This document shows, in pieces, positions 3,478-63,802 of a stretch of 64,000 nucleotides of DNA. A model generated the notes under the pieces. That model was not told where the DNA came from. It saw nothing but the letters and a program-made list of their open reading frames with translations, and did not search any database. Origin of the DNA: Betaproteobacteria bacterium (GTDB taxonomy: Bacteria; Pseudomonadota; Gammaproteobacteria; Burkholderiales; SG8-41). The position numbers and the translations under genes were made by a program. Location: NCBI GenBank assembly GCA_028291945.1, contig JAQGNH010000043.1, forward strand, positions 6,522 to 70,521, in the 5' to 3' direction. The stretch's first letter is position 1, and each line of letters begins with the position of its first letter.

Positions 3478-3620
3478 ACCACGAAGGACACGAAGGACAC
3501 AAAGGAATACCAACCACCAACGATGACGGCGACTGAGGCGGTGATGATCTCATCGATGGCGCTGGGCTGCGCCTTTCAATTGCCAACGCTTTCCTTTGTG
3601 TCCTTCGTGTCCTTTGTGGT
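3478..3620. repeat. Inverted-repeat spacer element with arms of tandem 9-mers (RAAGGACAC / GTGTCCTTY)
   Basis: The left arm 3478-3507 (accacgaaggacacgaaggacacaaaggaa) and right arm 3591-3620 (ttcctttgtgtccttcgtgtcctttgtggt) are complementary at 29 of 30 positions. The one mismatch would be a G:U pair in RNA. The internal loop is 83 nt. Confidence 0.9.
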
Positions 3621-5092
3621 TATTTTGTTAGTCCATGCTTAGCCCAGTAGTCACCAAAGATGTCCTCCACGGTCGGCTCGTTCGGCGGGATCGTGCGCAC
3701 GATGCGTGTGATATTCATGAAGTGGCGGTAATTCAGATTTTCGGAAAAGCTGTTTCCACCCCAGGTGCCACACCCCATCGAGAGTGAAAATGGCAAGCCG
3801 TTGTCGAAGCTGCCGCCGTTGGCGAACGTATGCGCCTGGTTCACGATGACACGGCACACAGTCATCTCGCGACCCAGGTAGTCGATGTGCGACTCGTCGC
3901 GAGTATGAATACCGCACGAATGACCGTCGCCCATGTAGTCGTAGATTTCTCGCATGATCTCGACGGCATTTTCGAAATCCCGCGCCCGGTACAGCGTGAG
4001 TACCGGCGACAGCTTTTCCCCCGAATACGGATAATCGCGGCCCGTTCCGATTTCTTCGACCATCAGACACTTCGCTCGAATGAGCTCGGAGCGAGTCAGG
4101 CCCGCGAGCTCACAGATGCGAGACACCGGCTGAGCTGTTACCGCGGCCGAGAGCTTGCCGCCGGGAAACATTGTTTTCTGCAGCGTCTCTTTTTCGGGTG
4201 CGGACAACAGGACCCCGCCTTCGCGCTCCAGCGCGGCGATCATCCGATCGTAGACGTTGCCGTGAATGATCAGACTGTTTTCCGAAGAGCAGCTGGTTGC
4301 GTTGTCGAAAATCTTCGAACGCATTACTTTTGCTGCAGCGTCCGCGCAATCTGCGGTGTCATCGATGATGACCGCCACGTTTCCGGCGCCCACGCCCAGC
4401 GCCGGTGTGCCGCTCGAGTAACCTGCGCGCACATTGCTTTGCGAGCCCGTCACGACGACCAGGTCAGCCTGCTTCATCAGCTCATTCGAAAGCGCCTTCG
4501 TCGCGGCGGGAAGTAATTGCACGAGGTCGAGAGGTGCGCCGATGCGCTTCAGCTCTTCGTGAATGTACTCGAGCAGACGCACAGACGTGGAATAGCCTTT
4601 GGGTGAAGGCGACAGGATGATCGCGTTGCCGCATTTCAGCGCGTTAATGATGTTGTTCGCGGGCGTCGCGCCGGGGTTCGTTGACGGTACCACAGCCGCG
4701 ACTACACCCACCGGCCGCGCGATCTCTATAACGCCTTTATCGGGGTATTCCGCAATGACCCCCGTTGAGACCGCGCCCGCCAGATCGCGCAAAAGGCCGA
4801 GTGTCTTGCGGTGATTCTTGACGATTTTGTCAGCGACATTGCCCAGGCCGGTATCGCGCACCGCGAGCTCGGCAAGTTGGCGATTGCGAGCCGGCTCCAT
4901 GATCGCCCAGCCCACAGCGCTTACGACTTCGTCGAGCCCACACTGGTCGTATCGGGCGTAGGTTTTCTGCGCAGTGCGCGCACGATCCATCAACGCTCGC
5001 ACGGTCTGTGCGGCGCCGGTGAGTTCCGTGCTCGCTTCGGTAGTACTCACGATGGGATGCCTTTCACTGGCGCCCGCTCGACGCGTGGACAA
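3620..5092 (-). CDS. CoA-acylating aldehyde dehydrogenase family protein (EutE/SauS-like)
   Basis: 490-aa ORF containing VVPSTNPGATPANNIINALKCGNAIILSPSPKG and NATSCSSENSLI, the catalytic Cys region of acylating ALDHs. Confidence 0.8.
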   Translation of the reverse strand: MSTRRAGASERHPIVSTTEASTELTGAAQTVRALMDRARTAQKTYARYDQCGLDEVVSAVGWAIMEPARNRQLAELAVRDTGLGNVADKIVKNHRKTLGLLRDLAGAVSTGVIAEYPDKGVIEIARPVGVVAAVVPSTNPGATPANNIINALKCGNAIILSPSPKGYSTSVRLLEYIHEELKRIGAPLDLVQLLPAATKALSNELMKQADLVVVTGSQSNVRAGYSSGTPALGVGAGNVAVIIDDTADCADAAAKVMRSKIFDNATSCSSENSLIIHGNVYDRMIAALEREGGVLLSAPEKETLQKTMFPGGKLSAAVTAQPVSRICELAGLTRSELIRAKCLMVEEIGTGRDYPYSGEKLSPVLTLYRARDFENAVEIMREIYDYMGDGHSCGIHTRDESHIDYLGREMTVCRVIVNQAHTFANGGSFDNGLPFSLSMGCGTWGGNSFSENLNYRHFMNITRIVRTIPPNEPTVEDIFGDYWAKHGLTK

Positions 5093-5132
5093 GCCGCGCT
5101 TATCATACCGCGAGAGGCATTTGGGATTGATT

Positions 5133-5444
5133 ATGCGACTTGTGAAGTCACTTTTATTAGCCGCTGCGCTGGGTCTTGCCGCTTGCGCAACTGAACCGCC
5201 GAGATACGGCGAAGTCGTTACGATGAAAGCCGGCGAAGCGCAGGCGACCTCGGATTATCCGGCACCGGGCACCGTGTGGCGCCTCGATGAAAAGGACCTC
5301 AAAACGTTGAGCCCGACGCCCATCGTTCCGGCGCCGCCACCCCCGAATCTGCCGCCGCCCCCTCGGCCCAATGCCTCTTACCCGCCGGCGTACTACTCGC
5401 CGCCCTATTGGGGCCCGAGCTATTACTACTGGCGCGGGTGGTAA
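5133..5444 (+). CDS. Small lipoprotein with a Pro/Tyr-rich C-terminus
   Basis: An internal ATG at 5133 gives MRLVKSLLLAAALGLAAC, a lipobox. The C-terminus is PPPPNLPPPPRPNASYPPAYYSPPYWGPSYYYWRGW. Confidence 0.55.
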   Translation: MRLVKSLLLAAALGLAACATEPPRYGEVVTMKAGEAQATSDYPAPGTVWRLDEKDLKTLSPTPIVPAPPPPNLPPPPRPNASYPPAYYSPPYWGPSYYYWRGW

Positions 5445-5588
5445 CTTTCAGGTGCATCTCCTCGCGCTGGTTCAAACTCAGTCTCGGCTCCGCATCACGT
5501 GCCGCTCATGTCGTGAGCTGGCATACGTTTTGCCGGCGGAAGATGCTACACTCCGCGCCGTCACAAAACGCAACAGGCAGTTTATGAA

Positions 5589-7007
5589 ATGGAAGGCAAG
5601 AAGCACGTCAAATTCGAGGGAAGACTGGTCTTCGTCGGCTTCGGATCGGTCGGGCAGGGTTCTTTGCCACTCCTGCTGCGCCACATCGATATGCCGCACG
5701 AGCGCATCTCCATCGTCACCGGGGATGAGCGCGGCCGCGCCGAAGCTGCCCACTTCGGCATAAAGTTCGAGGTCCGTCCCCTCACGCGCCAGAATTATCG
5801 CGCGATACTCGATCCCCTGATCGGCAGGGGCGATTTCCTTCTCAATCTTTCAGTCGATGTCTCCAGCGTAGCGCTGATCGAGCTCTGTTACGAAAAGGGC
5901 GCGATGTACATGGATACGTGCATCGAGCCCTGGCTCGGCGGATACACGGATCAGAGCGTCACGCCGTCTTTGCGCTCGAATTACGGCTTGCGCGAGGCCG
6001 TGCGCGCTCTGCGCGACAAATATCCTAACAGCGGCCCCACGGTCATTCCCACTCATGGTGCTAATCCCGGCCTCATTTCGCACTGGGTCAAGCAGGCGCT
6101 CCTCGACATTGCGCGCGATGCGAAAGGCGAGGTCAAAACACCGAAGACACGCGACGCGTGGGCGAAGCTCGCCATGGAGCTCGGAGTAAAAACCATCCAT
6201 TGCGCTGAGCGTGACACGCAGGTGGCCGACCCGCGGAAGCGTCGTTTCGAATTCGTGAATACCTGGTCCGTGGACGGCTTCATCGGCGAAGGTTCGCAGC
6301 CTTGCGAGCTCGGCTGGGGCTCTCACGAAAAGCATTTCCCGCCCGACGGCAAGAACCACGAGGTCGGCTGCAAGGCAGCTATCTATCTCACGCGTCCGGG
6401 CGCATCGGTGAAGGTTCGTTCGTGGACGCCGACGGAAGGTCAGTACCACGGGCTCCTCATCACACACGGTGAAGCGATTTCGATTTCCGACTACTACACT
6501 GTGCGAAAGAACGGTCGCGTTGTTTACCGACCCACGTGCCATTACGCTTACCATCCTTGCGACGACACGGTGCTGTCGGTTCACGAGCTCGCTGGCAGAG
6601 GCTGGATCGGTCAGGAGAAAAGGCGCGTGCTGATGGACGAAATTTACGACGGTGTCGATGAGCTGGGCGCACTTTTGATGGGGCACGCACGGGGCGCGTA
6701 CTGGTACGGCTCGCAGGTCTCCGTGCACGAAGCGCGCAAGCTGGCCCCGTTCAACAACGCGACGAGCATACAGGTTGCAGCGGGCGTGCTCGGCGGTGTC
6801 GTGTGGGCCATGGAAAATCCGGACGCCGGCATACTGGATCCCGATGATCTCGATTTCGAGCGTGTGCTCGAAGTTGCAAACCCGTACTTAGGTAAAGTAC
6901 ACGGCGTGTACAGTGACTGGACGCCGCTAGAGGGGCGCAACCACCCGTTTCCTGAGGATCTCGATACGAGCGATGCCTGGCAGTTCAAGAACTTCCGAGT
7001 TGTCTAG
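5589..7007 (+). CDS. hss: Homospermidine synthase
   Basis: 472-aa ORF. It has an N-terminal Rossmann GFGSVGQG and overall resembles bacterial homospermidine synthases (saccharopine-dehydrogenase-like) in length and in the motifs HGANPGLISHW and YRPTCHYAYHPCDD. Confidence 0.75.
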   Translation: MEGKKHVKFEGRLVFVGFGSVGQGSLPLLLRHIDMPHERISIVTGDERGRAEAAHFGIKFEVRPLTRQNYRAILDPLIGRGDFLLNLSVDVSSVALIELCYEKGAMYMDTCIEPWLGGYTDQSVTPSLRSNYGLREAVRALRDKYPNSGPTVIPTHGANPGLISHWVKQALLDIARDAKGEVKTPKTRDAWAKLAMELGVKTIHCAERDTQVADPRKRRFEFVNTWSVDGFIGEGSQPCELGWGSHEKHFPPDGKNHEVGCKAAIYLTRPGASVKVRSWTPTEGQYHGLLITHGEAISISDYYTVRKNGRVVYRPTCHYAYHPCDDTVLSVHELAGRGWIGQEKRRVLMDEIYDGVDELGALLMGHARGAYWYGSQVSVHEARKLAPFNNATSIQVAAGVLGGVVWAMENPDAGILDPDDLDFERVLEVANPYLGKVHGVYSDWTPLEGRNHPFPEDLDTSDAWQFKNFRVV

Positions 7008-7021
7008 GACGACTCGGAAGT
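6991..7021 (+). terminator. Perfect 10-bp hairpin enclosing the hss stop codon
   Basis: acttccgagt (6991-7000) pairs with actcggaagt (7012-7021). The 11-nt loop contains the TAG at 7005-7007. No clear T-run follows. Confidence 0.35.
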
Positions 7022-7030
7022 TCGGGCGGA

Positions 7031-7131
7031 GTACGAACAGAGGGAAACCCAGGTTTCCCTCCGTAACCTCGCTCCGCTCGGCGGGCCGGTAAACAAACAG
7101 AGGGAAACCAAAGGTTTCCCTCCGTAACCTC
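7031..7131. repeat. Two tandem copies of a REP-like hairpin element (GTAMACNAACAG-stem-loop-stem-CGTAACCTC)
   Basis: Copies lie at 7031-7070 and 7089-7131. Each has the stem gagggaaacc / ggtttccctc. A third copy is at 23275-23317. Confidence 0.85.
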
Positions 7132-7260
7132 CCATCCTTCGGCGATCTATTGATCGCTCCGTAGCATCGACGCCGCAGGCGATCTAGCCGAAGGAGACGC
7201 TGCGGTTATTCTGCTTGTTAAATTGTCTTGGCTGGACTGACGGAGTCCGAAGGGACTCAT

Positions 7261-8244: not shown

Positions 8245-8303
8245 CACTTCTTCTCCTCGACGACTGCTTTGAAACGTTATAGTCCTCAGCATCCTGCATT
8301 AGG

Positions 8304-8843: not shown

Positions 8844-8874
8844 ATGGCAGGGTGCTGTTTTATCGGGAATAAGT

Positions 8875-9781: not shown

Positions 9782-10918
9782 ATGACCCGATATTCGATGC
9801 GGGCCGTTGCATGCCTGGTGGTGTGCTTCGCGCTTGCTGCATGTGGTGGCAACATTCAGTTGCCGAGCAAGAAAGTCGATTACAAGTCGGCGGGAAAGCT
9901 TCCGTCACTGGAGGTCCCGCCCGATCTGACGCGTCCTGCCGGCGACGATCGCTTCGTGGTGCCGGACACCTCGCGTGGAGCCGCAACGTATTCCGCATAC
10001 CAGCGCGAGCGTGATGGTCGCTCCGAAGGGATCAGCTCGACCACGGTCCTGCCCCCACAGGAGGGTATTCGCGTAGAGCGCGCCGGCACTCAGCGCTGGC
10101 TCATCGTCAAAGGCGAACCTGAACAGCTGTGGCCCGTCGTGAAGGATTTCTGGCAGGAGACCGGGTTTCTCGTGAACATCGACATGCCAGAAGCTGGCGT
10201 GATGGAGACTGACTGGGCGGAGAACCGCTCCCGTGTGCCGGACGGATTTATCCGCAACACGCTGGGCAAGCTGCTGGACAGCGTGTACTCGACTTCGGAG
10301 CGGGACAAGTTTCGCACCCGGCTGGAACGCGGCTCGCAGAGCGGCACAACCGAGATTTACATCAGCCACCGCGGCATGGAAGAGGTGTACACGTCGGTGC
10401 AAAAGGATGACACGAAGTGGCAGCCGCGGCCGCCGAATCCGGAGCTTGAAGCCGAAATGCTTCGACGTCTGATGGTGCGGCTGGGCGTCCAGGAAGCGCG
10501 CGCGAAAACCGACATCGCCTCTGCTGCCAGCGCGCCGCAGCGGGCGGTGCTGCAGAAAGGACAGGACGGTTCGGCTCTGGCGCTCAACGAGCAGTTCGAC
10601 CGTGCATGGCGACGCGTCGGGCTTGCGCTCGATCGGGTCGGCTTCACTGTGGAAGACCGGGATCGCTCTAAAGGCCTCTACTACGTCCGCTATATCGATC
10701 CGGAAGTCGACAACAAGAGCGCGGAGAAAAAGGGCTGGTTGTCGAAGTTCAAATTCTGGGGCAGCAGCCCTGAGAAGCAGAAAAAAGAGCAGTACCGCGT
10801 CCTTGTGAGAGACGAAGGCGAGCGGGCCGAGGTGAACGTGCTCAACAAGGAAGGCGGCAAAGAGCAGTCGCCGACTGCGAATAGGATATTGACGCTGCTG
10901 TACGATCAGCTTAAGTAG
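9782..10918 (+). CDS. bamC: Outer-membrane protein assembly factor BamC (lipoprotein)
   Basis: The ATG at 9782 gives MTRYSMRAVACLVVCFALAACGG, a lipobox, followed by LPSLEVPPDLTRP. It sits immediately downstream of dapA. Confidence 0.75.
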   Translation: MTRYSMRAVACLVVCFALAACGGNIQLPSKKVDYKSAGKLPSLEVPPDLTRPAGDDRFVVPDTSRGAATYSAYQRERDGRSEGISSTTVLPPQEGIRVERAGTQRWLIVKGEPEQLWPVVKDFWQETGFLVNIDMPEAGVMETDWAENRSRVPDGFIRNTLGKLLDSVYSTSERDKFRTRLERGSQSGTTEIYISHRGMEEVYTSVQKDDTKWQPRPPNPELEAEMLRRLMVRLGVQEARAKTDIASAASAPQRAVLQKGQDGSALALNEQFDRAWRRVGLALDRVGFTVEDRDRSKGLYYVRYIDPEVDNKSAEKKGWLSKFKFWGSSPEKQKKEQYRVLVRDEGERAEVNVLNKEGGKEQSPTANRILTLLYDQLK

Positions 10919-10920
10919 CC

Positions 10921-11123
10921 GTGAGCTGTGAGCTGTGAGCCGTAAGGGGTAAGGGGTAAGCCCGTGGGACGTCAGGCGTGACGCGGAAGCCGCGCGTAGT
11001 AAGCGGGTGAGCCGGAATCGGTTAGTGGCAAAAGGGGAGAGGGTGCGCCGGATAGAACCGGAGGAACAGGTCGCGCGAGGGCTTTATACGGCTCACGGCT
11101 CACGGCTTACGACTCACGAATCG
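10921..11123. repeat. Inverted-repeat spacer element with tandem-heptamer arms (GTGAGCY/GTAAGSS ... CGGCTCA/CGACTCA)
   Basis: The left arm is six heptamers at 10921-10962 (gtgagct x2, gtgagcc, gtaaggg x2, gtaagcc). The right arm is five heptamers at 11089-11123 (cggctca x2, cggctta, cgactca, cgaatcg), imperfectly complementary. It fills the bamC-MBL spacer. Confidence 0.85.
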
Positions 11124-11902: not shown

Positions 11903-11983
11903 GTCTGCAATGTTGCTTCCTGCTTAAGGCAAGCCATTTTGGCCACGGCTTGTGCGGCTATCGCCGCTGAATTGCCGTGACAT

Positions 11984-12015
11984 AAAAAAGCCGGCTCGAT
12001 GAGCCGGCTTTTTTC
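11984..12015. terminator. Bidirectional rho-independent terminator
   Basis: aaaaaagccggctc-gat-gagccggctttttt: a 9-bp GC stem flanked by an A-run and a T-run, lying between convergent genes. Confidence 0.75.
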
Positions 12016-12026
12016 TGAGCTGAAAC

Positions 12027-22384: not shown

Positions 22385-22435
22385 ATCTATCGTTTTGAGA
22401 GGCTAACTTTTCGAGAGACTAACATTTCGATAGAT
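22385..22435. promoter_or_regulatory. Operator-like palindrome enclosing two direct repeats, in an AT-richer spacer
   Basis: atctatcg (22385-92) pairs with cgatagat (22428-35). They flank ttttgagaggctaac (22393-407) and ttttcgagagactaac (22408-23). The structure lies about 60 nt upstream of the small HTH ORF. Confidence 0.3.
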
Positions 22436-22494: not shown

Positions 22495-22761
22495 TTGCTG
22501 ACCGTGCGTGGGGTGGAATTGAAAACCAAAGTTCAAAGGAAGGCTGGCCGGCCGGCGCGCTCGCGCCGCAGAACGATCGCCGAGCTCGTCCAGGAACGAG
22601 GATCCATAGCGCAATTTGCCCGTGATCTGTCGCAGATCAGCGGAGAGGAGGTCACCTGGGCAAGGGTCAATAACTGGATACTCCGCGATTCGGTTTCAAA
22701 GAACATGGCCGTTCACGTTCATAAGCTCACGCGTGCACCCCTGGCGGATCTCCTGAGCTGA
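22495..22761 (+). CDS. Small Cro/YdaS-like helix-turn-helix protein (start uncertain)
   Basis: SIAQFARDLSQISGEEVTWARVNNWILRDSVSKNMAVHVHKLTRAPLADLL resembles Cro/YdaS-type HTH proteins. There is no clear ATG start. Confidence 0.4.
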   Translation: MLTVRGVELKTKVQRKAGRPARSRRRTIAELVQERGSIAQFARDLSQISGEEVTWARVNNWILRDSVSKNMAVHVHKLTRAPLADLLS

Positions 22762-35405: not shown

Positions 35406-35665
35406 CGCCAAGGACGCAAAGGAGAAACGAAGGACGCCAATCAGCACGCCAAGAATCTCCGTTTTGCGTGACCATGAGACAATTCACTGCTGGTCGAATG
35501 CGCCAAACGCTGGTGTATGTGCCAGCTTGATACGCACCAGCAGTAGTGTAGGCACCATGTTGTCCATGGCTCATCGCATAGGCGAATGATCGATACGGTT
35601 TGAGCCGCTGCTCACGAGAGAACGCCTTGGCGAGCTCGCTTCGTCCTTGGCGTCCCTTCTTTTCC
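35406..35665. repeat. Inverted-repeat spacer element (GGACGCCAAGG-type arms)
   Basis: Left arm cgccaaggacgcaaaggagaaacgaaggacgccaa (35406-40). Right arm cgccttggcgagctcgcttcgtccttggcgtcccttcttttcc (35623-65). Confidence 0.7.
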
Positions 35666-42821: not shown

Positions 42822-42860
42822 AAAAAATCCCGCCCGCGATTTACCGCGGACGGGATTTTG
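42822..42860 (-). terminator. Rho-independent terminator of the 42876..43946 gene
   Basis: aatcccgcccgcg / cgcggacgggatt form a stem complementary at 12 of 13 positions. A T-run follows on the minus strand (the aaaaaa at 42822-27). Confidence 0.6.
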
Positions 42861-45241: not shown

Positions 45242-45398
45242 GTGATTCGTGAGCCGTGAGCGGTGAGCCGTGAGCGTGAATCGTGGCTGGTGATCCGAAA
45301 TCCCTGAGAATGGGGCGGCAATTCGTGGTGCGCTAAGAGCAGGGCGGCAAGAGTTTGGCGCTCAAAGCCGACAAATCACGAATCACGAATCACGGAAT
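45242..45398. repeat. Inverted-repeat spacer element with tandem-heptamer arms (GTGATTC/GTGAGCS ... ACGAATC)
   Basis: The left arm is about 9 units at 45242-45303 (gtgattc gtgagcc gtgagcg gtgagcc gtgagcg ...). The right arm is 4 units at 45371-45398 (acaaatc acgaatc acgaatc acggaat). It fills the amrA-amrS spacer. Confidence 0.85.
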
Positions 45399-45399: not shown

Positions 45400-45957
45400 T
45401 CAGCCCTCCTCACACCACTTGGACACCGTATACCTGGCTAGTTTCAGTTCCGGATCCCAGAAGTCGGGCGGCAAGCCCGCCTTCTGTTTGAGATGCGCGA
45501 TGAATTCCGCCGGGTCGGGCAGCTCTTCCCAGACCTGAGGAAGAAAGGTGCTCTGATGAAAACCGTACTCGAATACGATGCCGTCGTGGCCTGCGCGGAG
45601 CTGCGACAGTGCGTGCTGTTCGTTTTCGAATGTAAGCGGCTCGAGGGGTGATAGCAGCGATACTTCGAGCCGTGTCCTTTCGAGCTCTTCGGCGGCGAGG
45701 GAACCGAAGCGCGGGTCGCGAAAAGCCGCTGCCACGGCGTTTGCCTTGACGTCCTCGAGCAGGGGCCGATGCGCGCGCAGCGTACCGATACAGCCTCTCA
45801 GGTCATCGCCCTGTCTGAGTGTCACGAAACACGCTCCGGGATCACGCAGCCATTGGGCGTCTTCATGTGCTGCAGCAGGTGTCAGGCCGAGCTCCCGCGC
45901 AATCGCCGCACGCGCGATGAGTAGAAGCACTTGTCCCGCGTCGGGCTGAATCCTCAC
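45400..45957 (-). CDS. amrA: AmmeMemoRadiSam system protein A (AMMECR1 domain)
   Basis: The LRGCIGTL motif is present. 185 aa. Confidence 0.9.
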   Translation of the reverse strand: MRIQPDAGQVLLLIARAAIARELGLTPAAAHEDAQWLRDPGACFVTLRQGDDLRGCIGTLRAHRPLLEDVKANAVAAAFRDPRFGSLAAEELERTRLEVSLLSPLEPLTFENEQHALSQLRAGHDGIVFEYGFHQSTFLPQVWEELPDPAEFIAHLKQKAGLPPDFWDPELKLARYTVSKWCEEG

Positions 45958-48714: not shown

Positions 48715-49197
48715 ATGAACGGTGCCGCGTTTGCCGCAGTTTTCGTGCAGGAGGGAAAACGTGCGGCCCCCGGCTCGGACACACTCCTGCTGCCGGACTG
48801 GCGCATCGACGACTGGCGCAAGCTTCTCGCCGGCACAAGCGTAAAACAGTTCCGTACGAGCGATGTGGTCATACAGCGCGACGTGCAAGAGCGAGTGCTC
48901 TACTTCGTCGCAGCCGGTACGCTCGAAGTGGGCGTGACCACCTTCGACGGCGTCAGCGTTTCGCCGCTCGCTCGCATCGGGCCGGTCAGCGTTATCGGTG
49001 AACAGTCGTTCTTCGACGGCCACCCGCGCTCGGCTAACGTGTGGGCAGTGACGAACGGGACACTGCTACGCTGGGAGTTTCAGGCGTTCGAGCAGTTCGG
49101 AGCCCAGGAGCCCCACCTTGCGCGCGACGTCATATTCGCTGTGGCGCGCGTGCTTTCGACGCGGTTGCGCATGACGACCATACGTGTGAGGCGCTAA
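48715..49197 (+). CDS. Stand-alone cyclic-nucleotide-binding (CAP_ED) domain protein
   Basis: VIGEQSFFDGHPRSANVWAV is the phosphate-binding cassette. 160 aa with no output domain. Confidence 0.7.
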   Translation: MNGAAFAAVFVQEGKRAAPGSDTLLLPDWRIDDWRKLLAGTSVKQFRTSDVVIQRDVQERVLYFVAAGTLEVGVTTFDGVSVSPLARIGPVSVIGEQSFFDGHPRSANVWAVTNGTLLRWEFQAFEQFGAQEPHLARDVIFAVARVLSTRLRMTTIRVRR

Positions 49198-49198
49198 C

Positions 49199-49441
49199 GC
49201 CGTCAGCGGTCAGGCGGCACTGGTCAGCCGTTCACCGCGTGAGTGAGCAGAACGTATTCGATAGAGCGGGTGCGCGAGTTCGATGATGCGGGGGCTTTCG
49301 CCTTGGTGTGACCGCTGACGGCTGATCACTGATGGTTCAGGTATTACGCTGACGCTTGACCGCTGACCGCTGACGGGTTTTTGGTTTGATGGCTGACCGC
49401 TGACGGTTTAGGTCTGACGGCGGGCACCTGACCGCTGACGT
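49199..49441. repeat. Repeat cluster built from the 11-mer GACCGCTGACG and its complement
   Basis: One inverted copy, cgtcagcggtc, lies at 49201-11. Exact direct copies start at 49310, 49365, 49395 and 49430, with a near copy at 49358. The cluster extends into the 3' end of the envZ ORF. Confidence 0.85.
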
Positions 49442-50744
49442 CTCTTATCGGCACCTCGAGCCGTGCCCGCAACCCACCGCCCTCTCTCGACAGCAGCCTG
49501 ATGTTGCCGCCGTGCATGCCCGCAATTCTGTCGACGATCGCCAGGCCTAGTCCCGTGCCGCTGCCGCTGCGCGCCGTGTCGAGGCGCGTAAACGGCTGGA
49601 GCATGCGCTCGACGGCGTCCTCAGGAATTCCAGGGCCTCGATCGAGCACTTCTAGATAGACGCGATCTCCGTCCTCGCCGGTTACGAGCTCCACTTCTCC
49701 ACCTCCGTGCCGCAACGCGTTGTCGATCAGGTTGCCGATCAGCCTCTGCATGGCACGCGGTCGCAGCGACAGCGGACGTGCCTCGCCGAGCGTGCTGCGC
49801 ACGGGTTTACCGCTGAGAACGTAGCGTGCAACGACGTTTTCGGCGAGCGTGTTCAAATCCGTTCCGGGGACTGCTTCTTCTGTGTCGCGCAGCCTGGCGA
49901 AATCGAGGAACTGGCCAATCGCCGTATCGATGTCTTCGATATCCTGAACGAGACCTTCCTTGAGCTCGTCGTCTTCTTTGTCACCCATCATCTCGAGTCC
50001 GAGACGTATGCGTGAGAGCGGCGTGCGCAAGTCGTGCGAAACCCCGGCGAGCAGCAGTGCGCGCTCGTCATCGAGCCGCTGGAGGTCGGCTGCCATCTGG
50101 TTGAATGCCTGCGCCAGTGTGCCGATCTCGGACGGTCCGGATTCGGTCACGGGCTGTGGTGTCGTTCCACGTCCCATCTGTCCTGCCGCACGCGTGAGCT
50201 CGCGCAACGGCCGGTTGATGAGCGAGACAATGAAATAGGCGCCGCCGAGCGCGAGTATCAGGACGAGTGCTCCCCAGCCTATCCAGCGCAGGGGCTCGTT
50301 GCGCTCGATACGAGAGCGCGGCATGTGCATCCAGTAACCGTCTTTGTCGATGTTGAAGCTAACCCAGAGGCCCCTGACGCCTCCGCGGCTCAGGGTTATC
50401 AGGGTTTCGGGCCCGAGCTGACGCCGCAGCTCACTTGCGACTTCCTGAACGAAGTCTCTATCGGGAAGAGGTGCGATGCGCTCACCGGGCGCGGCGAGAT
50501 AGACTTGTATGCTCTCCGACTGAGACAGCTCGGAAAGCAGGTCGAAGCGCTTGGCGGGGTCAGCCGTGATGAGCGCCCAGCGCGTGAGATTAATGACGCT
50601 CGCGATCTGCTGTGCCGTCTGGAGTGCACGCGGCGCGCGCTCGCTCGCGCGAAAAATCTGCAGCCACGCGAGATTCGCGACGACGAGCAGCAGGGCGATA
50701 AACAACACACTGCGCCACAGCAGTGAGCGCGGCCAAAGCCTCAT
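49344..50744 (-). CDS. envZ: EnvZ-like sensor histidine kinase
   Basis: It has two TM segments, a HAMP domain, the H-box GVSHDLRTPL, and the ATPase motifs DNALRHG and GTGLGLAIV. The start is the ATG at 50744 (MRLWPRS) or the GTG at 50759. The last ~30 codons derive from the repeat. Confidence 0.85.
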   Translation of the reverse strand: MRLWPRSLLWRSVLFIALLLVVANLAWLQIFRASERAPRALQTAQQIASVINLTRWALITADPAKRFDLLSELSQSESIQVYLAAPGERIAPLPDRDFVQEVASELRRQLGPETLITLSRGGVRGLWVSFNIDKDGYWMHMPRSRIERNEPLRWIGWGALVLILALGGAYFIVSLINRPLRELTRAAGQMGRGTTPQPVTESGPSEIGTLAQAFNQMAADLQRLDDERALLLAGVSHDLRTPLSRIRLGLEMMGDKEDDELKEGLVQDIEDIDTAIGQFLDFARLRDTEEAVPGTDLNTLAENVVARYVLSGKPVRSTLGEARPLSLRPRAMQRLIGNLIDNALRHGGGEVELVTGEDGDRVYLEVLDRGPGIPEDAVERMLQPFTRLDTARSGSGTGLGLAIVDRIAGMHGGNIRLLSREGGGLRARLEVPIRDVSGQVPAVRPKPSAVSHQTKNPSAVSGQASA

Positions 50745-50762: not shown

Positions 50763-50854
50763 CTGATTCGTGACCCGTGATCCGTGACTCGACTATACCG
50801 GCCGTGGTTACGCACGCTGAAATCGGACGAATCACAAATCACGAATCACCCGTC
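50763..50854. repeat. Inverted-repeat spacer element with heptamer arms, between ompR and envZ
   Basis: Left arm ctgattc gtgaccc gtgatcc gtgactc (50763-90). Right arm acgaatc acaaatc acgaatc acccgtc (50827-54). The last unit overlaps the ompR stop codon. Confidence 0.85.
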
Positions 50855-51587
50855 ACGCAGTCTGCTTCGGTTCGCCATCGGGAATGAACACGTAACCGAA
50901 ACCCCACACGGTTTGTATGAACGCGGGTTTGGCCGCATCGGGCTCGATGAGCTTTCGCAGGCGCGAGATCTGGACATCGATACTGCGATCGAACGCGCCG
51001 AATTCGCGCCCCCGGGCAAGCTCCATCAGCTTGTCGCGCGATAACGGAACGCGCGGATGCTGAACGAGAACCTTGAGCAGGGCGAATTCACCGGTGGTGA
51101 GGGTCACGTCGTCGCCGCTTTTGGTGAGATTGCGCGTGGCGAGATTCAGACGGAACTCACCGAACTCGGCGATTTGCGCATCCGCACTCGGCGCGCCCGG
51201 AGGCGCCGGCACCGGCCGACGCCGCAGCACGGCCTGGATGCGTGCCACGAGCTCCCGTGGATTGAACGGCTTTGCGAGATAATCGTCGGCGCCCACCTCG
51301 AGACCGACGATCCGATCGACATCGTCACCTTTCGCTGTGAGCATGATGATCGGCATATCTTCGTTGCCGCCGCGCAGACGCCGACAAATCGAGAGTCCGT
51401 CCTCACCGGGCAGCATGAGATCCAGAATCATCAGGTCGTAGCGCTCGCGCGCGAGCTGACGATTCATTTCCGTGGCGTTCGATACGGTGCGCACGCTGTA
51501 GCCCTGCTCTCCCAGATAGCGGTTGAGCAAGTCGCGCAGGCGCGCGTCGTCGTCGACGACCAGAACCTTGGTCTTGTGCTCTGACAT
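50853..51587 (-). CDS. ompR: OmpR-family response regulator
   Basis: KVLVVDDDARLRDLL...DLMILDLMLPGEDG, with a winged-helix C-terminus IQTVWGFGYVF. Confidence 0.95.
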   Translation of the reverse strand: MSEHKTKVLVVDDDARLRDLLNRYLGEQGYSVRTVSNATEMNRQLARERYDLMILDLMLPGEDGLSICRRLRGGNEDMPIIMLTAKGDDVDRIVGLEVGADDYLAKPFNPRELVARIQAVLRRRPVPAPPGAPSADAQIAEFGEFRLNLATRNLTKSGDDVTLTTGEFALLKVLVQHPRVPLSRDKLMELARGREFGAFDRSIDVQISRLRKLIEPDAAKPAFIQTVWGFGYVFIPDGEPKQTA

Positions 51588-55457: not shown

Positions 55458-55646
55458 GCGGGTCTTCCGCCGGGGGATTTACACCGTATTTCTGGGCCGA
55501 GCAAAGGCATACAAATCCGTGGGCTAAGGCCCCAAGCTCAGCCTTTGTTCTCGCGTTCTCCCGCGCCCGCGGCTAGAATGTAGTCGAGCGGCGGAGCCCC
55601 CGCTTAATGTCGCAGGCATAAAAATAGAAGCCGGGAGACAGGATAC

Positions 55647-56777
55647 ATGTTAGCCACACGTATACGGCAGAAGGACGGCGTTTTCTACTTCGCCAGTTAC
55701 CCTGCCAAGGACGTTCTGGACAAGGTGCGGTTCATCAGTCGCTTCTACGGTGAAGGCGACGACATTGCACCGCACACCGTTCCCCAGAACGACGAAATCG
55801 CCCAGTTCATTGCCCGCGTCGAGCGCACGGACGAGGCGTTTCAGCGGCAGCTCTCGCGCGCGAAGGTCCGGGCGCTTCGAAATTTCTACGAAATGGCGGT
55901 GAGCCAGCCGCCGATCCCCGGCACGGTGCTTCTGTTTACGGCCGAGACGTTGCGCTTCAGCGCGACCAACAGCGATACGGTCGGAAACTTGCAGGAACCC
56001 ACTGCGCGCTATCTCATCATCGATGGCCAGCATCGCCTTGCTGCGCTGCGCTTCTATCTGAAGGAGCATCCGGCCGAAGCAGCGAGCATCAATGTGCCCT
56101 GCGTCATCTTCGATGGACGCAGCGAAGATTTCGCCGCGGAAATGTTCGTTATCATCAACTCGACGCCGACTCGCATCAACAAGAGTCACCTGGTCGACCT
56201 GTACGAGCGCGTGTCGTGGGCCGAGCCCGACCGCCGGTTCGCCGCACGGCTGGTCGAAGACCTCTACAAGGAAGACGACAGTCCGCTGCAGTACCGGATC
56301 AACCGGTTGGGCGGGCGCAGTCAGCAGGACAAGTGGATACTCCAGGCTGAGCTATTCAACGAGCTGCACCGATGGGTCAGCGCGGACTGGAAGAAAATCC
56401 GGCAGCACTCGAATACCTACCGTGAGGGCGAAAAGTATTACGGCATGGTGCGCGACTTCTTCAAATCGGCGGAGAAGGTGTGGGGCGACGCGTGGGGCAA
56501 CGACAATTACATGGTGACCAAGCCGGTGACCATCAAAGCCATGGTGCGTGTGTGCGCCGATCTTGCCCGGACGGAGGGTGATCCGGCCGAAGGGCGGGTG
56601 AAACGCTGGGAAGAGCGCCTGTCATCGTGGAAAGAACAGCAGCGCGCGTTCCGGTCCGACGGTTTTTACGAACGCTTTCCCGCCAAAGGGCAGATCGAGC
56701 GCGTCGCACGCATTCATCGAGATCTTGCCAAGTGGGCAGGCATTGAGACGCGCAGCCCCGCTAAGGCGCGGGAATAG
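55647..56777 (+). CDS. DGQHR domain-containing protein (DndB/DpdB-like, ParB-nuclease superfamily)
   Basis: The motifs AFQRQL, IIDGQHRLAAL and EMFVIINSTPTRINKSH are present. 376 aa. No dnd or dpd partner genes are adjacent. Confidence 0.8.
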   Translation: MLATRIRQKDGVFYFASYPAKDVLDKVRFISRFYGEGDDIAPHTVPQNDEIAQFIARVERTDEAFQRQLSRAKVRALRNFYEMAVSQPPIPGTVLLFTAETLRFSATNSDTVGNLQEPTARYLIIDGQHRLAALRFYLKEHPAEAASINVPCVIFDGRSEDFAAEMFVIINSTPTRINKSHLVDLYERVSWAEPDRRFAARLVEDLYKEDDSPLQYRINRLGGRSQQDKWILQAELFNELHRWVSADWKKIRQHSNTYREGEKYYGMVRDFFKSAEKVWGDAWGNDNYMVTKPVTIKAMVRVCADLARTEGDPAEGRVKRWEERLSSWKEQQRAFRSDGFYERFPAKGQIERVARIHRDLAKWAGIETRSPAKARE

Positions 56778-58370: not shown

Positions 58371-58543
58371 GAAGCGACGCCAGGGAGAGATTAAGGACGC
58401 CAAGCGGCTCGCAATACGAGTGACATGTATTCGACGCAGATTCCACGGCTGAAGCAGGGAAGGCTCGCGCCGGCAGCGTAAAGACCGATCGCACTTTCGT
58501 GGTTTTTTCGCGTCCTTGGCTGTTCCGTGGCGTCCTGGGCGTC
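58371..58543. repeat. Inverted-repeat spacer element (GGACGCCAAG-type arms) between the two RidA genes
   Basis: Left arm gaagcgacgccagggagagattaaggacgccaagcg (58371-406). Right arm cgcgtccttggctgttccgtggcgtcctgggcgtc (58509-43). Confidence 0.7.
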
Positions 58544-58559
58544 TATGCTTTTACGCTGT

Positions 58560-58913: not shown

Positions 58914-59230
58914 GACTTCTCCTTTAAAAGATTGGGGTAGACGCGCATTCTGGTAAACAAACGGTCAATTGACAACCTCTATACACAGCCGCTATTGCGT
59001 GCTGGCAAGCGCCACCCCTCCCTCCGAGAACAGCAGTCTGAGACTTCCGGGTCGCTGGAACGCGCTCGGTGCGGACAGGCGCCGCTACGATCAGCGGGAT
59101 TTGCCGCCAGCGCGCGGCAGTCAAGATCAGGTGGTGTGATGCAGCAGGATATCGGTAAGATCCTCGCGGATGGCTTCCCGGGTATTGCGACCGCTTAGTT
59201 GTTCTTCAAAAAACGAGGAGAGATTTACCT

Positions 59231-60205: not shown

Positions 60206-60248
60206 GGACCGTCAACCGGTGAGGACAGAAGGAAAGGCGACAAGCCTT

Positions 60249-60443
60249 AACCGAAGGACACAAAGGACACGAAGGAATTCAACTTTAAAAAACAGGACTG
60301 TCAGATCAAATCGAAACTACGGCATTCAAGCGCACTGGCGCACGCCGAAGGAGGAGGGTTACGGGGGGAACCTTCGGTGCCCCCTGTTCCTTCACCGCGC
60401 CGAAGGGCATCCCGCAGGGATGTCCTTTGTGTCCTTTGTGGTG
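60249..60443. repeat. Inverted-repeat spacer element with RAAGGACAC / GTGTCCTTT 9-mer arms (sibling of 3478-3620)
   Basis: Left arm aaccgaaggacacaaaggacacgaaggaa (60249-77). Right arm tgtcctttgtgtcctttgtggtg (60421-43). They share a 15-nt exact complementary core, aaggacacaaaggac / gtcctttgtgtcctt. Confidence 0.85.
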
Positions 60444-60451
60444 AATGTTGT

Positions 60452-61504: not shown

Positions 61505-61744
61505 TGTAGGACTCCTTGCTGCCGCGGGGGTGTTTCTTAGGAAGCCGCATAATAATGCGTGCGACTGAACATCGTCACGTTCATTCGCGTCAGGCGCATA
61601 CGCGGTTGCGCGACAGCGGATACTTTATTCTGTCAGGGTTGGAGCTTGAATGAGGGTTCGCTAACAATTATGGTGCGGCACGCACGCCCCCAGATCGCGA
61701 GCGCTTAGTTGCCGAGAAGAACAACTGACCTACGGTAGAATCGC

Positions 61745-62458
61745 GTGCATAACCATAACGCGCGCCGTTCCGATCCTTTGAAAATTCTCGCGCTCGACAC
61801 CTCTACTGAATACTGCTCGGTCGCGCTTTCCATCGACGGGGAAGTTGATTTCCGTGGCACGCACGCGGGGCAGACGCATTCGCAGCTCGTGTTGTGTATG
61901 GTCGATGAGTTGCTGCGAGCGCACGCGATGCGCCTGGACAGCCTGGATGGGATCGCGTATGGCGAGGGCCCTGGATCCTTCACGGGGTTGCGCATCGCCT
62001 GCGGCGTCGTACAAGGGCTCGCTTTCGGCGCTAGCTTGCCTGTCGTGGGCATCGGCACGCTTCTCGCAATGGCCGCAGGCACACGGGCCGAACGCGTCGT
62101 GTGCTGTCTGGATGCGCGGATGCAGGAGATTTACCACGGAGCCTATGAGTACCGGAGCGGCGCATGGCGCGTGGTGCATGAACCGTCGGTGTGCCCACCC
62201 GCTGCCGCGCCTGCCGTGTCGGGCAGCGGCTGGCTCGGGTGCGGCAGCGGTTTCCTCGCTTACCCGGAAGCGCTCGCGAGTCGGTACGCAGGACAGCTGG
62301 AAGCGACCGAGCCTCTTCGCTTTCCACACGCACGTGAAGTGGCGCAGCTCGCCTTGCCGCGGTTCGCCGCTAACGAGGCGGTCAGCTCCGAGCACGCCGC
62401 GCCGGTTTACCTGAGGGACAAAGTCGCCTTGCGCACCGATGAGCGCCCCGGTCGCTAA
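61745..62458 (+). CDS. tsaB: tRNA threonylcarbamoyladenosine biosynthesis protein TsaB
   Basis: KILALDTSTEYCSVAL...GPGSFTGLRI. The start is the GTG at 61745 or the TTG at 61778. Confidence 0.85.
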   Translation: MHNHNARRSDPLKILALDTSTEYCSVALSIDGEVDFRGTHAGQTHSQLVLCMVDELLRAHAMRLDSLDGIAYGEGPGSFTGLRIACGVVQGLAFGASLPVVGIGTLLAMAAGTRAERVVCCLDARMQEIYHGAYEYRSGAWRVVHEPSVCPPAAAPAVSGSGWLGCGSGFLAYPEALASRYAGQLEATEPLRFPHAREVAQLALPRFAANEAVSSEHAAPVYLRDKVALRTDERPGR

Positions 62459-62903
62459 CAGCGTAGCGTACCGGCGCATGACCGAGGCTGATATCGAAGC
62501 CGTCGTTGCGATCGAGAACATCGTTCACGCGCATCCATGGACGGCGGGTAACTTCAAGGACTCGCTCGCTGCTGGTTATGAATGCTGGATTGCCTGGCAC
62601 GGTTCCCAGGTCGCCGGCTACGGTGTTCTGATGGTTGCTGCGGGTGAGGGACACTTGCTGAATCTGAGTGTCGCAGCGCAGTGGCAGCGCAAAGGCTTGG
62701 GCAGCGACTTTACGCGCTTCTTCATCAAGCTTGGGCGCGATTATGATGCTGCTCGAATTTATCTGGAAGTGCGCCCCTCGAATGCCGCCGCCCGGGCACT
62801 GTATGCTGGCAACGGTTTCGCGGAGGTTGGAACGCGCCGGGATTACTATCCTGCGGCAGACGGCCGTGAAGACGCTCTGATCATGGAGCTCAACCTGAAA
62901 TGA
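62439..62903 (+). CDS. rimI: Ribosomal protein S18-alanine N-acetyltransferase
   Basis: It has a GNAT fold, with QRKGLG and LEVRPSNAAARALYAGNGF. It follows tsaB. Confidence 0.85.
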   Translation: MSAPVANSVAYRRMTEADIEAVVAIENIVHAHPWTAGNFKDSLAAGYECWIAWHGSQVAGYGVLMVAAGEGHLLNLSVAAQWQRKGLGSDFTRFFIKLGRDYDAARIYLEVRPSNAAARALYAGNGFAEVGTRRDYYPAADGREDALIMELNLK

Positions 62904-63766
62904 CTTCGCGACGCGACGAGATACTGAAGGAAATCGGCATCACCCCCGTGTGGCGCTTGCGCGTTCAAGAATCGCTCGCAGAGGCGCAGGAGGTGAGCTC
63001 CGAGCCGGCACCACCCGTTCCAGATACTCGGGCGTTGCAGCCATCTTTTGAAGGCACGAGCCCGGTCTCTCATCAAACGGGCGAACCGTCGCGCGTCGCG
63101 GCTCAGCCGTCAGCGCTTCACGGAAGCTCGGCTCCGATGCTGCGGCGTTCTGCAGCTGATGACGACGAGCGTCGCGCGGCGATCATCCGGATGGATTGGG
63201 CCGGGCTCAAACAGGCCGTGGCGCAGTGCGTCGCATGCGCCCTGCATGCGAGGCGCAATAAAACGGTATTCGGAGTGGGCGACGAAAACGCCGACTGGAT
63301 GTTCGTTGGCGAAGGCCCTGGCGCCGACGAAGATAGACAGGGCGATCCGTTCGTCGGCCAGGCCGGAAAACTGCTCGACAGCATGCTTGCCGCGATCAAA
63401 TTGAAGCGCGATGACAACGTCTATATAGCCAACGTCGTGAAATGCCGCCCGCCCGGCAACCGCAACCCGGAACCTGACGAGGCGTCAAAGTGCGAGCCTT
63501 ATCTGCAGCGGCAGATCGAGCTTATCAAACCCAAGCTCATCATTGCGCTGGGCCGGGTCGCCGCGCTCAATCTTCTTTCGCGCGAGGCCAGCATCGCGAG
63601 CTTGCGCGGACGCGTGCTCGCGTACCGGGGCACACCGCTCATCGTGACGTACCATCCCGCGTATCTGCTGCGCAATCTGCCGGACAAAGCGAAAGCGTGG
63701 GAAGATCTGTGCTTCGCGGTCAAAACCATGCAGAGCTTGCAATCGGGGCCGAGCGTCACCACTTGA
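62900..63766 (+). CDS. Family 4 uracil-DNA glycosylase with an N-terminal extension
   Basis: [50 protein letters not shown]...[12 protein letters not shown]. Confidence 0.85.
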
Positions 63767-63774
63767 GAGCCAGT

Positions 63775-63802
63775 GCGGAATGGTGAATCACGAATGCGGA
63801 AT
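63775..63802. repeat. Short tandem-heptamer block (GCGGAAT GGTGAAT CACGAAT GCGGAAT)
   Basis: It has four heptamer units in the udg-lemA spacer. A TCGTTCA-type block follows at about 63812-63836. Arm complementarity is weak. Confidence 0.35.

Follow-up and report, generated by a model that had tools for sequence, protein, structure and literature searches.

We analysed a 64,000-nucleotide stretch of DNA (the window) on contig JAQGNH010000043.1, from the Burkholderiales-like metagenome-assembled genome (MAG) of an uncultured soil betaproteobacterium (protein accessions MDB59215xx). The genes of the window are ordinary housekeeping genes and include a risA/risS-like two-component system, ispDF, an AmmeMemoRadiSam trio, suf genes, mfd, dapA-bamC, and TctC-family receptors. 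Eight of the gene-to-gene spacers hold two facing tandem arrays, built of 7- or 9-nt units, that are able to fold as one long hairpin. We refer to these elements, together with one vestige, as E1 to E9 (Table 1). A prior inspection of the letters alone (the sequence-only reading) had proposed at least nine spacers with a single architecture. We inspected all nine sites and found tandem arrays and inverted partners where that reading had placed them. The architecture is strong in six elements (E1, E2, E4, E5, E6 and E8), decayed in E3 and E7, and reduced to a vestige in E9. The family proved real and is defined by architecture rather than by sequence. Some units do recur within the window: GAAGGACAC in E1 and E8, GTGAGCC in E2 and E4, and GTGATTC in E4 and E6. 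An 11-mer unit that had been proposed as one of the unit types turned out to be the decayed arrays of the nonamer AAGGACGCC in E3 and E7, which are akin to the GAAGGACAC arrays of E1 and E8.

In Tandem Repeats Finder, E1, E2, E4, E6 and E8 each gave an array of period 7 or 9 at either end, and E5 gave a single internal array. We also ranked all inverted repeats with arms no more than 350 nt apart across the whole 64 kb. The eight longest all came from E1, E2, E4 or E5, with E6 and E8 lower in the same ranking, and the top inverted repeat of the window was E1, with arms of 30 nt that are 97% complementary. The heptamer pattern GTGANNNGTGANNNGTGA (GTGANNN triplets, at most one mismatch) had 13 matches in the window compared with 0.17 expected from shuffles. 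All 8 plus-strand matches are in left arms and all 5 minus-strand matches are in right arms, so that every match faces inward. The nonamer pattern GGACRCNNAGGACRC had 7 matches in the window compared with 0.6 expected. Self-complementarity had been claimed for each copy; in E4, most 5' units (GTGAGCC) have no complement in the 3' arm (GAATCAC).

The copies had been expected to fold better than shuffled controls. We computed minimum free energies against dinucleotide shuffles and expressed them as z, with two values per element. E1 was the most extreme (-9.7/-8.5), followed by E8 (-5.1/-5.8), E2 (-4.5/-4.4), E4 (-4.5/-4.1), E5 (-3.1/-3.8), E6 (-2.7/-4.4) and E3 (-3.0/-3.8). Folding was unconvincing for E7 (-0.3/-1.9) and E9 (-2.5/+0.4). 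The predicted stems are ~30 bp in E1, ~26 bp in E2 and ~20 bp in E8. As a control we folded all 31 window spacers of at least 60 nt, of which 23 are element-free and 8 are divergent. Only 3 of the 23 element-free spacers reached z <= -3, each with a classical terminator-type hairpin, and all eight divergent spacers fell between -0.6 and +1.1. The E7 spacer had a z of 0.0 in this control.

Table 1. Paired-array elements of the window, and loci in other genomes that carry a PF05635 gene inside inverted arrays. Positions without a locus prefix are window positions.
Feature	Position	Tandem Repeats Finder array	Units or sequence	Surroundings
E1 5' arm	3478..3507	3480-3506	ACCAC(GAAGGACAC)x2 + AAAGGAA, nonamer units	15 nt away from an AMP-binding gene's likely start codon (ATG, 3462-3460, minus strand)
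E1 3' arm	3591..3620	3592-3618	TTCCTTTGTGTCCTTCGTGTCCTTTGTGGT	core 3508-3590; arm terminates on the stop codon (TTA, 3620-3622) of a minus-strand aldehyde dehydrogenase gene
E2 5' arm	10921..10962	10917-10960	GTGAGCT, GTGAGCT, GTGAGCC, GTAAGGG, GTAAGGG, GTAAGCC	begins 2 nt past the BamC stop codon (TAG, 10916-10918)
E2 3' arm	11090..11118	11088-11118	GGCTCAC, GGCTCAC, GGCTTAC, GACTCAC, G	core 10963-11089; stops 13 nt short of the GTG start (11132) of a metallo-beta-lactamase-fold gene
E3 5' arm	35406..35441		decayed nonamers CGCC AAGGACGCA AAGGAGAAAC GAAGGACGCC AAT	after the Rieske gene stop; longest ungapped arm of E3 just 11 nt
E3 3' arm	35620..35659		GAACGCCTTGGCGAGCTCGCTTCGTCCTTGGCGTCCCTTC	35 nt ahead of the YdjM start (35695)
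E4 5' arm	45242..45296	45248-45279	GTGATTC, GTGAGCC, GTGAGCG, GTGAGCC, GTGAGC, GTGAATC, GTGGCTG, GTGATCC	begins 6 nt from the start codon (ATG, 45235) of the AmmeMemoRadiSam radical SAM gene (minus strand)
E4 3' arm	45373..45395	45374-45394	AAATCAC, GAATCAC, GAATCAC, GG	75% complementary; complement of GTGATTC-type units only; 4 nt short of the AMMECR1 stop codon (45400-45402)
E5 left arm	49198..49230		CGCCGTCAGCGGTCAGGCGGCACTGGTCAGCCG, GGTCAGC-type heptamers	immediately follows the stop (TAA, 49195-49197) of a cNMP-binding gene
E5 right side	49310..49440	49347-49374	four GCTGACC heptamer blocks: 49310-49325, 49348-49376, 49391-49406, 49428-49440	right part (49347-49441) within the 3' tail of a histidine-kinase gene (stop codon 49344-49346)
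E6 left arm	50763..50790	50764-50787	CTGATTC, GTGACCC, GTGATCC, GTGACTC	20 nt from the kinase ATG (50742, minus strand)
E6 right arm	50829..50856	50830-50849	GAATCAC, AAATCAC, GAATCAC, CCGTCAC	core 50791-50828; last unit includes the response-regulator stop codon (TCA on the plus strand, 50853-50855)
E7 left arm (weak)	58374..58406		GCGACGCCAGGGAGAGATTAAGGACGCCAAGCG, decayed AAGGACGCC nonamers	between two minus-strand RidA genes
E7 right arm (weak)	58510..58543		GCGTCCTTGGCTGTTCCGTGGCGTCCTGGGCGTC	
E8 5' arm	60250..60279	60254-60276	ACC GAAGGACAC AAAGGACAC GAAGGAATT	44 nt past the stop of a TctC-family gene
E8 core	60280..60421		internal GC-rich hairpins	
E8 3' arm	60422..60443	60421-60440	GTCCTTTGTGTCCTTTGTGGTG	8 nt short of the stop (60452) of a convergent isocitrate/isopropylmalate dehydrogenase gene
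E9 vestige	63770..63830		GGTGAATCACGAATGCGGAAT ... ATCGTTCATCACTGATCG	after a UDG-family gene
PF05635 gene	L029:1298-1819		GAAAGGC units	Gemmatimonadota
PF05635 gene	L098:7302-7940		GTGGTC-type units	Acidobacteriota
PF05635 gene	L117:895-1490		GAGAATT units	Acidobacteriota
PF05635 gene	L207:2400-2930 (L207-212)			Gemmatimonadota
PF05635 gene	L213:2370-3000 (L213-221)			Gemmatimonadota
PF05635 gene	L238:1424-1872 (L237/L238)			Xanthomonas
PF05635 gene	L240:1483-1930 (L239-244)			Dyella

The elements fill their spacers from stop codon to start codon, as had been described, with distances between arm and codon that range from codon overlap up to ~45 nt. Using a curated gene map of the window for all orientation counts, we found six elements between co-directional genes rather than the four first reported, the additions being the BamC/metallo-beta-lactamase and Rieske/YdjM pairs; two further elements are between convergent genes. 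Elements were present in none of the 8 divergent spacers and in 8 of the 23 other spacers of at least 60 nt (one window; Fisher p ~0.06). Elements appear to be tolerated only outside divergent promoter regions.

We did not observe T-runs after the arms of the heptamer elements E2, E4 and E6. An intrinsic (bidirectional) terminator consists of a GC-rich stem and then a U-tract, and the sole terminator-like case among the elements is the inner hairpin of E8, a 13-bp hairpin at 60401-60429 followed by the T-rich 3' arm (a consensus match only). A scan of 44-64 kb for consensus promoters and terminators returned counts at chance level. Classical hairpins with T-tracts are found elsewhere in the window, at 11981-12017 (A-tract, GC stem, T-tract), 6989-7064 and 42824-42859. 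Because terminator-type hairpins are present at other gene ends, the genome is not dependent on the repeat pairs for termination.

A further possibility was that the elements belong to a catalogued family of mobile repeats or are assembly artefacts. Repetitive extragenic palindromes (REPs) and bacterial interspersed mosaic elements (BIMEs) of enterobacteria and pseudomonads contain a conserved ~35-nt palindrome that is spread by a REP-associated tyrosine transposase (RAYT), and they serve as mRNA stabilisers or protein-binding sites. The window elements resemble them as extragenic palindromes located at 3' ends and inside operons and absent from promoter regions, and REP/BIME is the best-understood model for how the window elements may work. 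The elements differ from REPs and BIMEs in that their arms are tandem repeats, their sequence varies per copy, and their cores are unique. The sequence-only reading had not recognised REP/BIME, enterobacterial repetitive intergenic consensus (ERIC) sequences, MITEs (miniature inverted-repeat transposable elements) or CRISPR arrays, and our results agree. We found no palindrome consensus common to the copies, such as REPs, BIMEs or paired REPs (REPINs) would have. MITEs exist as many near-identical copies in which terminal inverted repeats and a target-site duplication surround a conserved interior. A blastn search of eight cores against the window and ~2 Mb of fetched related and unrelated DNA returned one chance-level match, and cores without matches elsewhere are not MITEs with a conserved interior; in addition, different lineages carry different units at one and the same junction (see below). 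The CRISPR architecture, in which direct repeats of 24-48 nt alternate at regular intervals with unique spacers, is also lacking, since the units here are 7-9 nt long and head-to-tail and the arrays are inverted, and no cas domains were found among the proteins scanned or annotated on matching contigs. An Rfam search, which the sequence-only reading had proposed, gave no match at gathering thresholds and nothing on the elements at E<=1. The absence of transposase and RAYT genes that it had noted was also borne out, with none among the window proteins scanned against Pfam or annotated on matching contigs. Through an identical response-regulator protein we found matching contigs, and the elements recur in one NCBI MAG contig and five contigs of Joint Genome Institute (JGI) metagenomes that are 98.8-99.9% identical, as well as in related species. 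Recurrence in six independent assemblies, and in related species too, means that they are not assembly artefacts. The elements are palindromic, intergenic, and situated between co-directional or convergent genes as REPs are, but with no common palindrome, unique cores, a blank Rfam search, no transposase or RAYT among the scanned and annotated proteins, and recurrence across assemblies, we find a catalogued mobile repeat (REP/BIME/REPIN or MITE) or an assembly artefact hardly credible.

That the sequence-only reading did not recognise the elements does not make them a new kind. The same convergent heptamer-pair architecture and polarity had already been published for Xanthomonas (PMC4692102), with a gene-context bias in the direction seen in the window, and we conclude that the window elements are convergent short-repeat pairs of the same kind as the Xanthomonas GGGAATC pairs and the cyanobacterial short tandemly repeated repetitive (STRR) hairpins. 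Xanthomonas campestris and X. citri carry 70-75 convergent opposite-strand pairs of GGGAATC (GGGNATC) heptamers per genome (Rehm et al. 2015, PMC4692102). These repeats are mostly transcribed, their lengths vary between species while the pair type is preserved, and the pairs are chiefly between aligned or convergent open reading frames (ORFs) and rare between divergent ones; formation of G-quadruplexes has been proposed (PMC4692102). Eight window spacers share the defining arrangement of two facing opposite-strand tandem arrays with a spacer, and they also share the polarity, the location by stop and start codons, and a unit number that varies while the pair is kept. In contrast to Xanthomonas, which was described with one consensus unit, the window genome is betaproteobacterial and uses GTGAGCY, GTGATTC, GTGACCC, GGTCAGC and the nonamers GAAGGACAC and AAGGACGCC. 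Its units (GTGANNC, GGTCAGC, RAAGGACRC) also lack the G-tracts of GGGNATC. In cyanobacteria, a 7-bp STRR forms a hairpin between hupS and hupL, for which a role in transcript stability or translational coupling was suggested (PMC2670836). Like the window elements, it consists of 7-bp tandem units, is hairpin-capable and occupies an intercistronic spacer. STRRs differ in being few genome-wide units of AT-richer heterocystous cyanobacteria with no nonamers described, whereas the window units are more diverse, and paired inverted arrays were reported to be rare in Anabaena (PMC4692102). The TAACTGA heptamers of marine Beggiatoaceae, cyanobacteria and Bacteroidetes also form intergenic arrays near start codons, are patchy across phyla, and have a proposed post-transcriptional role, but they are a single unit in direct arrays, with 169 direct sets and one indirect set (PMC4679880), and the window arrays are inverted and have several units. 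What is new here is the presence of several unit families, including nonamers, in a single genome, and a turnover in place that provides a clearer evolutionary history than the published cases; the phenomenon also extends beyond Xanthomonas and cyanobacteria.

We then compared the elements between strains and species. Relative to the window, E4 in strain L002 has one extra GTGAATC in its 5' arm (+7 nt) and one AATCACG fewer in its 3' arm (-7 nt). In L231 (97.7% identical), E2 has lost one GTAAGGG unit and has a 6-nt tandem duplication in the core. The E4 3' arm differs by 14 nt between L234 and L235, which have GGCTCAC units there, and unit identity in the E4 5' arm is altered in L232 and L234. 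In L230 (91% identical), the 3' arm of E2 is conserved, and the 5' arm and core have been replaced. These comparisons point to arrays that gain and lose whole units, as expected of replication slippage.

The junction between the response-regulator and kinase genes, where E6 is located, allowed the longest comparison, and we collected 80 loci with relatives of the response regulator. In most relatives, including five close ones (at least 79% protein identity), the two genes meet in an ATGA or GTGA stop/start overlap or are separated by a 3-nt gap. Ten close relatives have a 70-120-nt spacer of inverted heptamers (only partial in L128). Their arrays begin on the stop codon (TGATAGGTGATAGG...) and finish within ~10 nt of the kinase ATG, and the units vary by lineage: GTGAGGC, GAGAGGC, GTGAGTC/GATTCAC, GACTGAT, GTGAACG, GTGATAG and GAGGCGT. 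L141 and L142 already have different units with regulator genes that are 91% identical. The elements are patchy on the gene tree, within each of its clades, and the GTGA/ATGA overlap is likely the ancestral state of the junction. As read from the junction sequences, a 7-nt GTGAnnn duplication at the overlap spares both reading frames, which makes it an easy starting point for arrays. A single junction displays an evolutionary series that begins with a stop/start overlap of 4 nt and leads to a spacer of 110 nt able to form a hairpin. The detector that we used picked up inverted pairs solely among the closest relatives (170 kb), and none in 494 kb of more distant ones. Judged from these alignments, unit sequence drifts across lineages while both arms of one element stay related, and elements arise and are remodelled in place rather than spreading through transposition of a conserved unit.

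To set the rate of change against a neutral standard, we used syntenic DNA from an 88%-identical species (L222, L232, L234), where identity at third codon positions is 74-83%. Across three lineages E6 keeps 89% identity and has zero indels. When E8 was compared with L222, the 5' arm was 100%, the 3' arm 96% and the core 91% identical, and the outer flanks of E8 itself were 62-65% identical. On these alignments E6 and E8 are therefore above synonymous sites in conservation, which fits selection. E3 was ~85% identical to L232, near the neutral rate. E5 contained many indels and was down to 51% identity. L222 lacks ~140 nt of the E7 spacer, and where the window has the E9 vestige its orthologous site carries a complete (GATGAAT)n...(ATTCATC)n pair. 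In L001, a clustered change at the left end of E8, from ccttaac--cg to cattcaccacg, adds 6 bp of complementarity to the 3' GTGGTG, possibly the product of a template switch from arm to arm. The nonamer GGACRCNAAGGACRC was present only in E8 orthologues across all fetched loci, indicating a lineage-specific unit. Next to the E7/E8 region, L222 (8114-9519) and the window (region of 59231) also differ in gene content: between its TctC-family gene and ridA, L222 has two additions, one a CoA-transferase gene and the other a small ORF, and the window is without both.

At E5 the array runs into a gene. The histidine-kinase ORF (49344-50742, minus strand) has a Pfam HATPase_c match that ends at residue 438 of 471, and beyond it the last ~30 codons are read out of the E5 GCTGACC heptamer array. 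Because this tail contains indels (gaps of 7 nt in the window and of 3 and 16 nt in relatives) and the kinases are of unequal length (463, 466 and 471 aa), the C-terminal tail of the kinase seems to be a by-product of the repeat and not conserved protein.

The main alternative to a functional hairpin is that the elements are neutral by-products of replication, in which slippage would expand arrays in any unconstrained DNA, quasi-palindrome template switching would copy arms, and selection would purge only those copies that damage promoters or genes. This account would explain the 7- or 14-nt indels between strains that are unbalanced between arms, the rapid change of units between L141 and L142, the presence or absence of E7, the rebuilding of E5, the decay or growth of E9, the clustered change that raises complementarity (E8, L001), and a predicted RNA stability without strand bias (see below). 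A GTGAnnn duplication that is harmless to both genes would provide its first step, and the over-representation of heptanucleotide repeats has itself been attributed to slippage: according to Mrazek 2007, as cited in PMC4679880, they are the most over-represented long simple repeats in many bacteria, including Burkholderia. It would not explain why the E8 arms, 57 nt in all, have a single change when the synonymous rate predicts ~10-15, with the core at 91% and the flanks at 62-65%, or why E6 is free of indels in three lineages. GTGAGCG and similar units also recur in distant phyla, and the polarity described next has no obvious mutational cause. We consider a purely neutral origin somewhat unlikely.

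We scanned 185,579 species representatives for three tandem copies of GTGAGCB and found at least 120 loci compared with ~10 estimated by chance. Among the matches listed, to which all counts in this paragraph refer, an array of complementary units is located no more than 500 nt downstream in at least 22 loci, and the reverse order was found in one. The paired loci came from Gemmatimonadales, Pyrinomonadaceae and other Acidobacteriota, Betaproteobacteria, Rhodocyclaceae, Myxococcaceae, and others. Some matches (e.g. Streptococcus, Streptomyces) have no inverted partner and are probably unrelated repeats. A unit-agnostic detector found 33 inverted pairs, 13 of which have units unlike the search pattern, among them ATTTTGG, GTGGTCG, CGGGGAA, GGATTGA and GTTGATC. 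The left arm contains more G than C in 30 of the 33 pairs, including 12 of the 13 with unrelated units; in E5 and E6 the G excess is small or nil. Because left arms are rich in G across unrelated units, both the architecture and the inward polarity of the G-rich strand appear to be general.

A speculative idea for the polarity is that a C-rich arm emerging first from the polymerase would be exposed as a Rho loading site, and one emerging last would be paired at once. Other explanations were tried and set aside. Stop codons in three frames hold for GTGA and GTAA units, but by-eye inspection showed many other 5' units to be free of stops. Mimicry of an extended Shine-Dalgarno complement (AAGGAGGTGATCC) by the 5' units is suggestive for the AAGGA and GTGATCC types and a misfit for ATTTTGG and GTCTACG. 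A missing Shine-Dalgarno sequence, as a sign of coupling, was recorded at 5 of 6 downstream genes, but in a crude test such a sequence was present at just 20 of 52 others.

The polarity could also indicate that the arrays (GTGANNC, AAGGACAC) are double-stranded DNA sites for an oligomerising protein, such as a nucleoid-associated protein, gyrase (which acts at BIMEs), or a polar factor of the Chi/Ter type, which would face each other because binding is directional. The strict inward orientation of the G-rich strand, the recurrence of a few units in the genome and of GTGAGCG across phyla, and the conservation of the E8 arms (100% and 96% in L222) would be consistent with such sites. A single sequence-specific protein is a misfit for units that differ widely among elements, and among close relatives at one site; moreover, the 7-nt period is out of step with the DNA helical repeat, and no candidate gene is linked to the elements. 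We regard protein-binding DNA sites as very unlikely.

PF05635 is the family of the 23S rRNA intervening-sequence protein, a four-helix bundle that has the fold of Avd, the accessory protein of diversity-generating retroelements. In the Gemmatimonadales locus L081:1867-2304, a PF05635 protein is encoded by the 437-nt core that separates (GTGAGCG)n from (CGCTCAC)n. PF05635 genes were within inverted heptamer arrays at each of the 8 independent loci that we examined in Gemmatimonadota, Acidobacteriota, Xanthomonas and Dyella (L081 and Table 1). One such gene (P0004) was recovered in six samples, in which the flanking arrays have 4.3-7.3 units, and another (P0088) is flanked by units of ~22 nt that contain GTGAGCG. 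In Xanthomonas and Dyella, a conserved PF05635 gene between accB and accC is flanked by GGGAATC arrays, with CGGGAATCGGGAGTGGAGAATCGGGAATCGG no more than 10 nt from the accB stop and ATTCCCCATTCCCGACTCCCTATTCCC reaching up to the ATG of accC. The paper of Rehm et al. (PMC4692102) does not report these PF05635 genes within some Xanthomonas pairs, and S23, four helix, accB and accC are terms absent from it. Other repeats are nested in such pairs as well: at L012:2215-2313, L015:6665-6775 and L122:6918-7028, all from Gemmatimonadales, the cores of heptamer pairs contain a nested palindromic repeat (GTCATCCCGAGGAGCG..GACGAGGGATCTAC / GTAGATCCCTC...), which looks like a REP-type element inserted in the loop.

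These loci raise the possibility that a class of selfish hairpins related to 23S intervening sequences, with PF05635 in the loop, has the pairs as its ORF-less form or favoured landing site, and that its long stem would let the insert be removed or tolerated at the RNA level. The occurrence of PF05635 between inverted heptamer arrays at 8 of 8 loci, including the published GGGAATC arrays, would be expected, as would the array length that differs among samples at a PF05635 locus and the nesting of other small hairpin repeats in the L012, L015 and L122 cores. The 23S intervening sequences of Coxiella, Leptospira and others share with the window elements a long terminal inverted-repeat stem around a variable interior, and they differ in being located in rRNA helices, some with an ORF, whereas the window elements are ORF-less and between protein-coding genes. 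In Coxiella the sequence contains an S23p (PF05635) ORF, its terminal stem is cleaved by RNase III, and its tandem heptamers vary in number between strains (PMC4990558). In the window and its close relatives we found the stem without the ORF: tblastn and a six-frame profile search (E<=1) detected neither a PF05635 gene nor a remnant of one in the window, in ~170 kb from the metagenomic relatives closest to it (L127-L143), or in syntenic contigs from related species. Because the window lineage lacks PF05635, it is linked to these loci by architecture only. More than 20 ORF-less elements occur in this lineage, the cores are unique, and the differing units at one junction fit growth in place better than insertion. 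PF05635 proteins are not known to function in mobility. Taken together, a selfish hairpin is an improbable source of the window elements.

A broader proposal, by analogy, is that convergent short-repeat hairpins from Betaproteobacteria, Xanthomonadales, Gemmatimonadota, Acidobacteriota and possibly cyanobacteria would constitute one cross-phylum class, with a full form that contains PF05635. We consider this unlikely. If true, a single RNA-level insert, selfish or domesticated, would have the window copies, the GGGAATC pairs of Xanthomonas and the intervening sequences of rRNA as its versions, and host transcripts would tolerate it because the repeat stem is processed or bypassed. The presence of PF05635 genes in pairs joins two unexplained features of bacterial genomes, and accB-PF05635-accC in Xanthomonas provides a tractable test system.

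The reading that we prefer, with a probability of roughly 0.45, is that the paired arrays form a stem-loop at the transcript level that acts on the flanking cistrons. The spacers would be transcribed within operons or as 3' ends, and in the RNA the arrays would pair as a long, register-tolerant stem of 20-30 bp that closes off the spacer and brings the upstream stop and the downstream start to the base of one helix. Such a stem could be a barrier to 3' exonucleases, a substrate for RNase III, or both, with a processing similar to the action of RNase III on rRNA intervening sequences. It would thereby set the relative stability or translation of the flanking cistrons, uncoupling or tuning them in the manner of REP stem-loops within an operon. 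The arms would be kept alike both by copying from arm to arm (template switching) and by selection for pairing.

Several observations weigh against this reading. The more stable fold belonged to the sense-strand RNA in only 5 of 15 co-directional elements, and with the sense strand seldom more stable, selection at the RNA level has left no G-U signature. The folding of E7 is no improvement on shuffled sequence, the arms are frequently unequal or only partly complementary (E4), and E5, E7 and E9 were gained, lost or rebuilt between 88%-identical species, which looks neutral. The avoidance of divergent spacers is not significant within this single window, and the G-rich-first polarity (30 of 33 pairs among the matches listed) goes beyond what hairpin stability by itself explains. 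Ordinary signals in the cores of E6 and E8, such as a start region or a terminator, could account for their conservation in place of the arms, and we infer transcription, RNA pairing and cleavage in the source organism. The sequence-only reading had taken self-complementarity as the mark of a selected hairpin. The constraint on E6 and E8 supports that view, but slippage with arm copying predicts equal self-complementarity, the G-U signature is missing, and several elements are in flux. With conserved and fluctuating copies in the same window, the choice between a selected RNA structure and a self-growing palindrome becomes directly testable.

Other features of the window were also noted. The co-directional spacer at 55458-55646 contains no repeat element and is 93.7% identical to an 88%-identical species, a value that exceeds most coding sequence and, by a wide margin, third codon positions; the spacer may contain a conserved leader or a regulatory RNA. 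This spacer is upstream of a solitary DndB-like gene (55647-56777, 376 aa; DndB family) that adjoins DUF1501/DUF1800 genes, with no other dnd genes annotated in the surrounding ~18 kb. At 22393-22434, a 16-nt tandem repeat (TTTCGAGAGACTAACA, 2.6 copies) is directly upstream of a small ORF (22495-22761) with a weak match to a CI-repressor-like helix-turn-helix, and this repeat may be an operator or iteron-like site.

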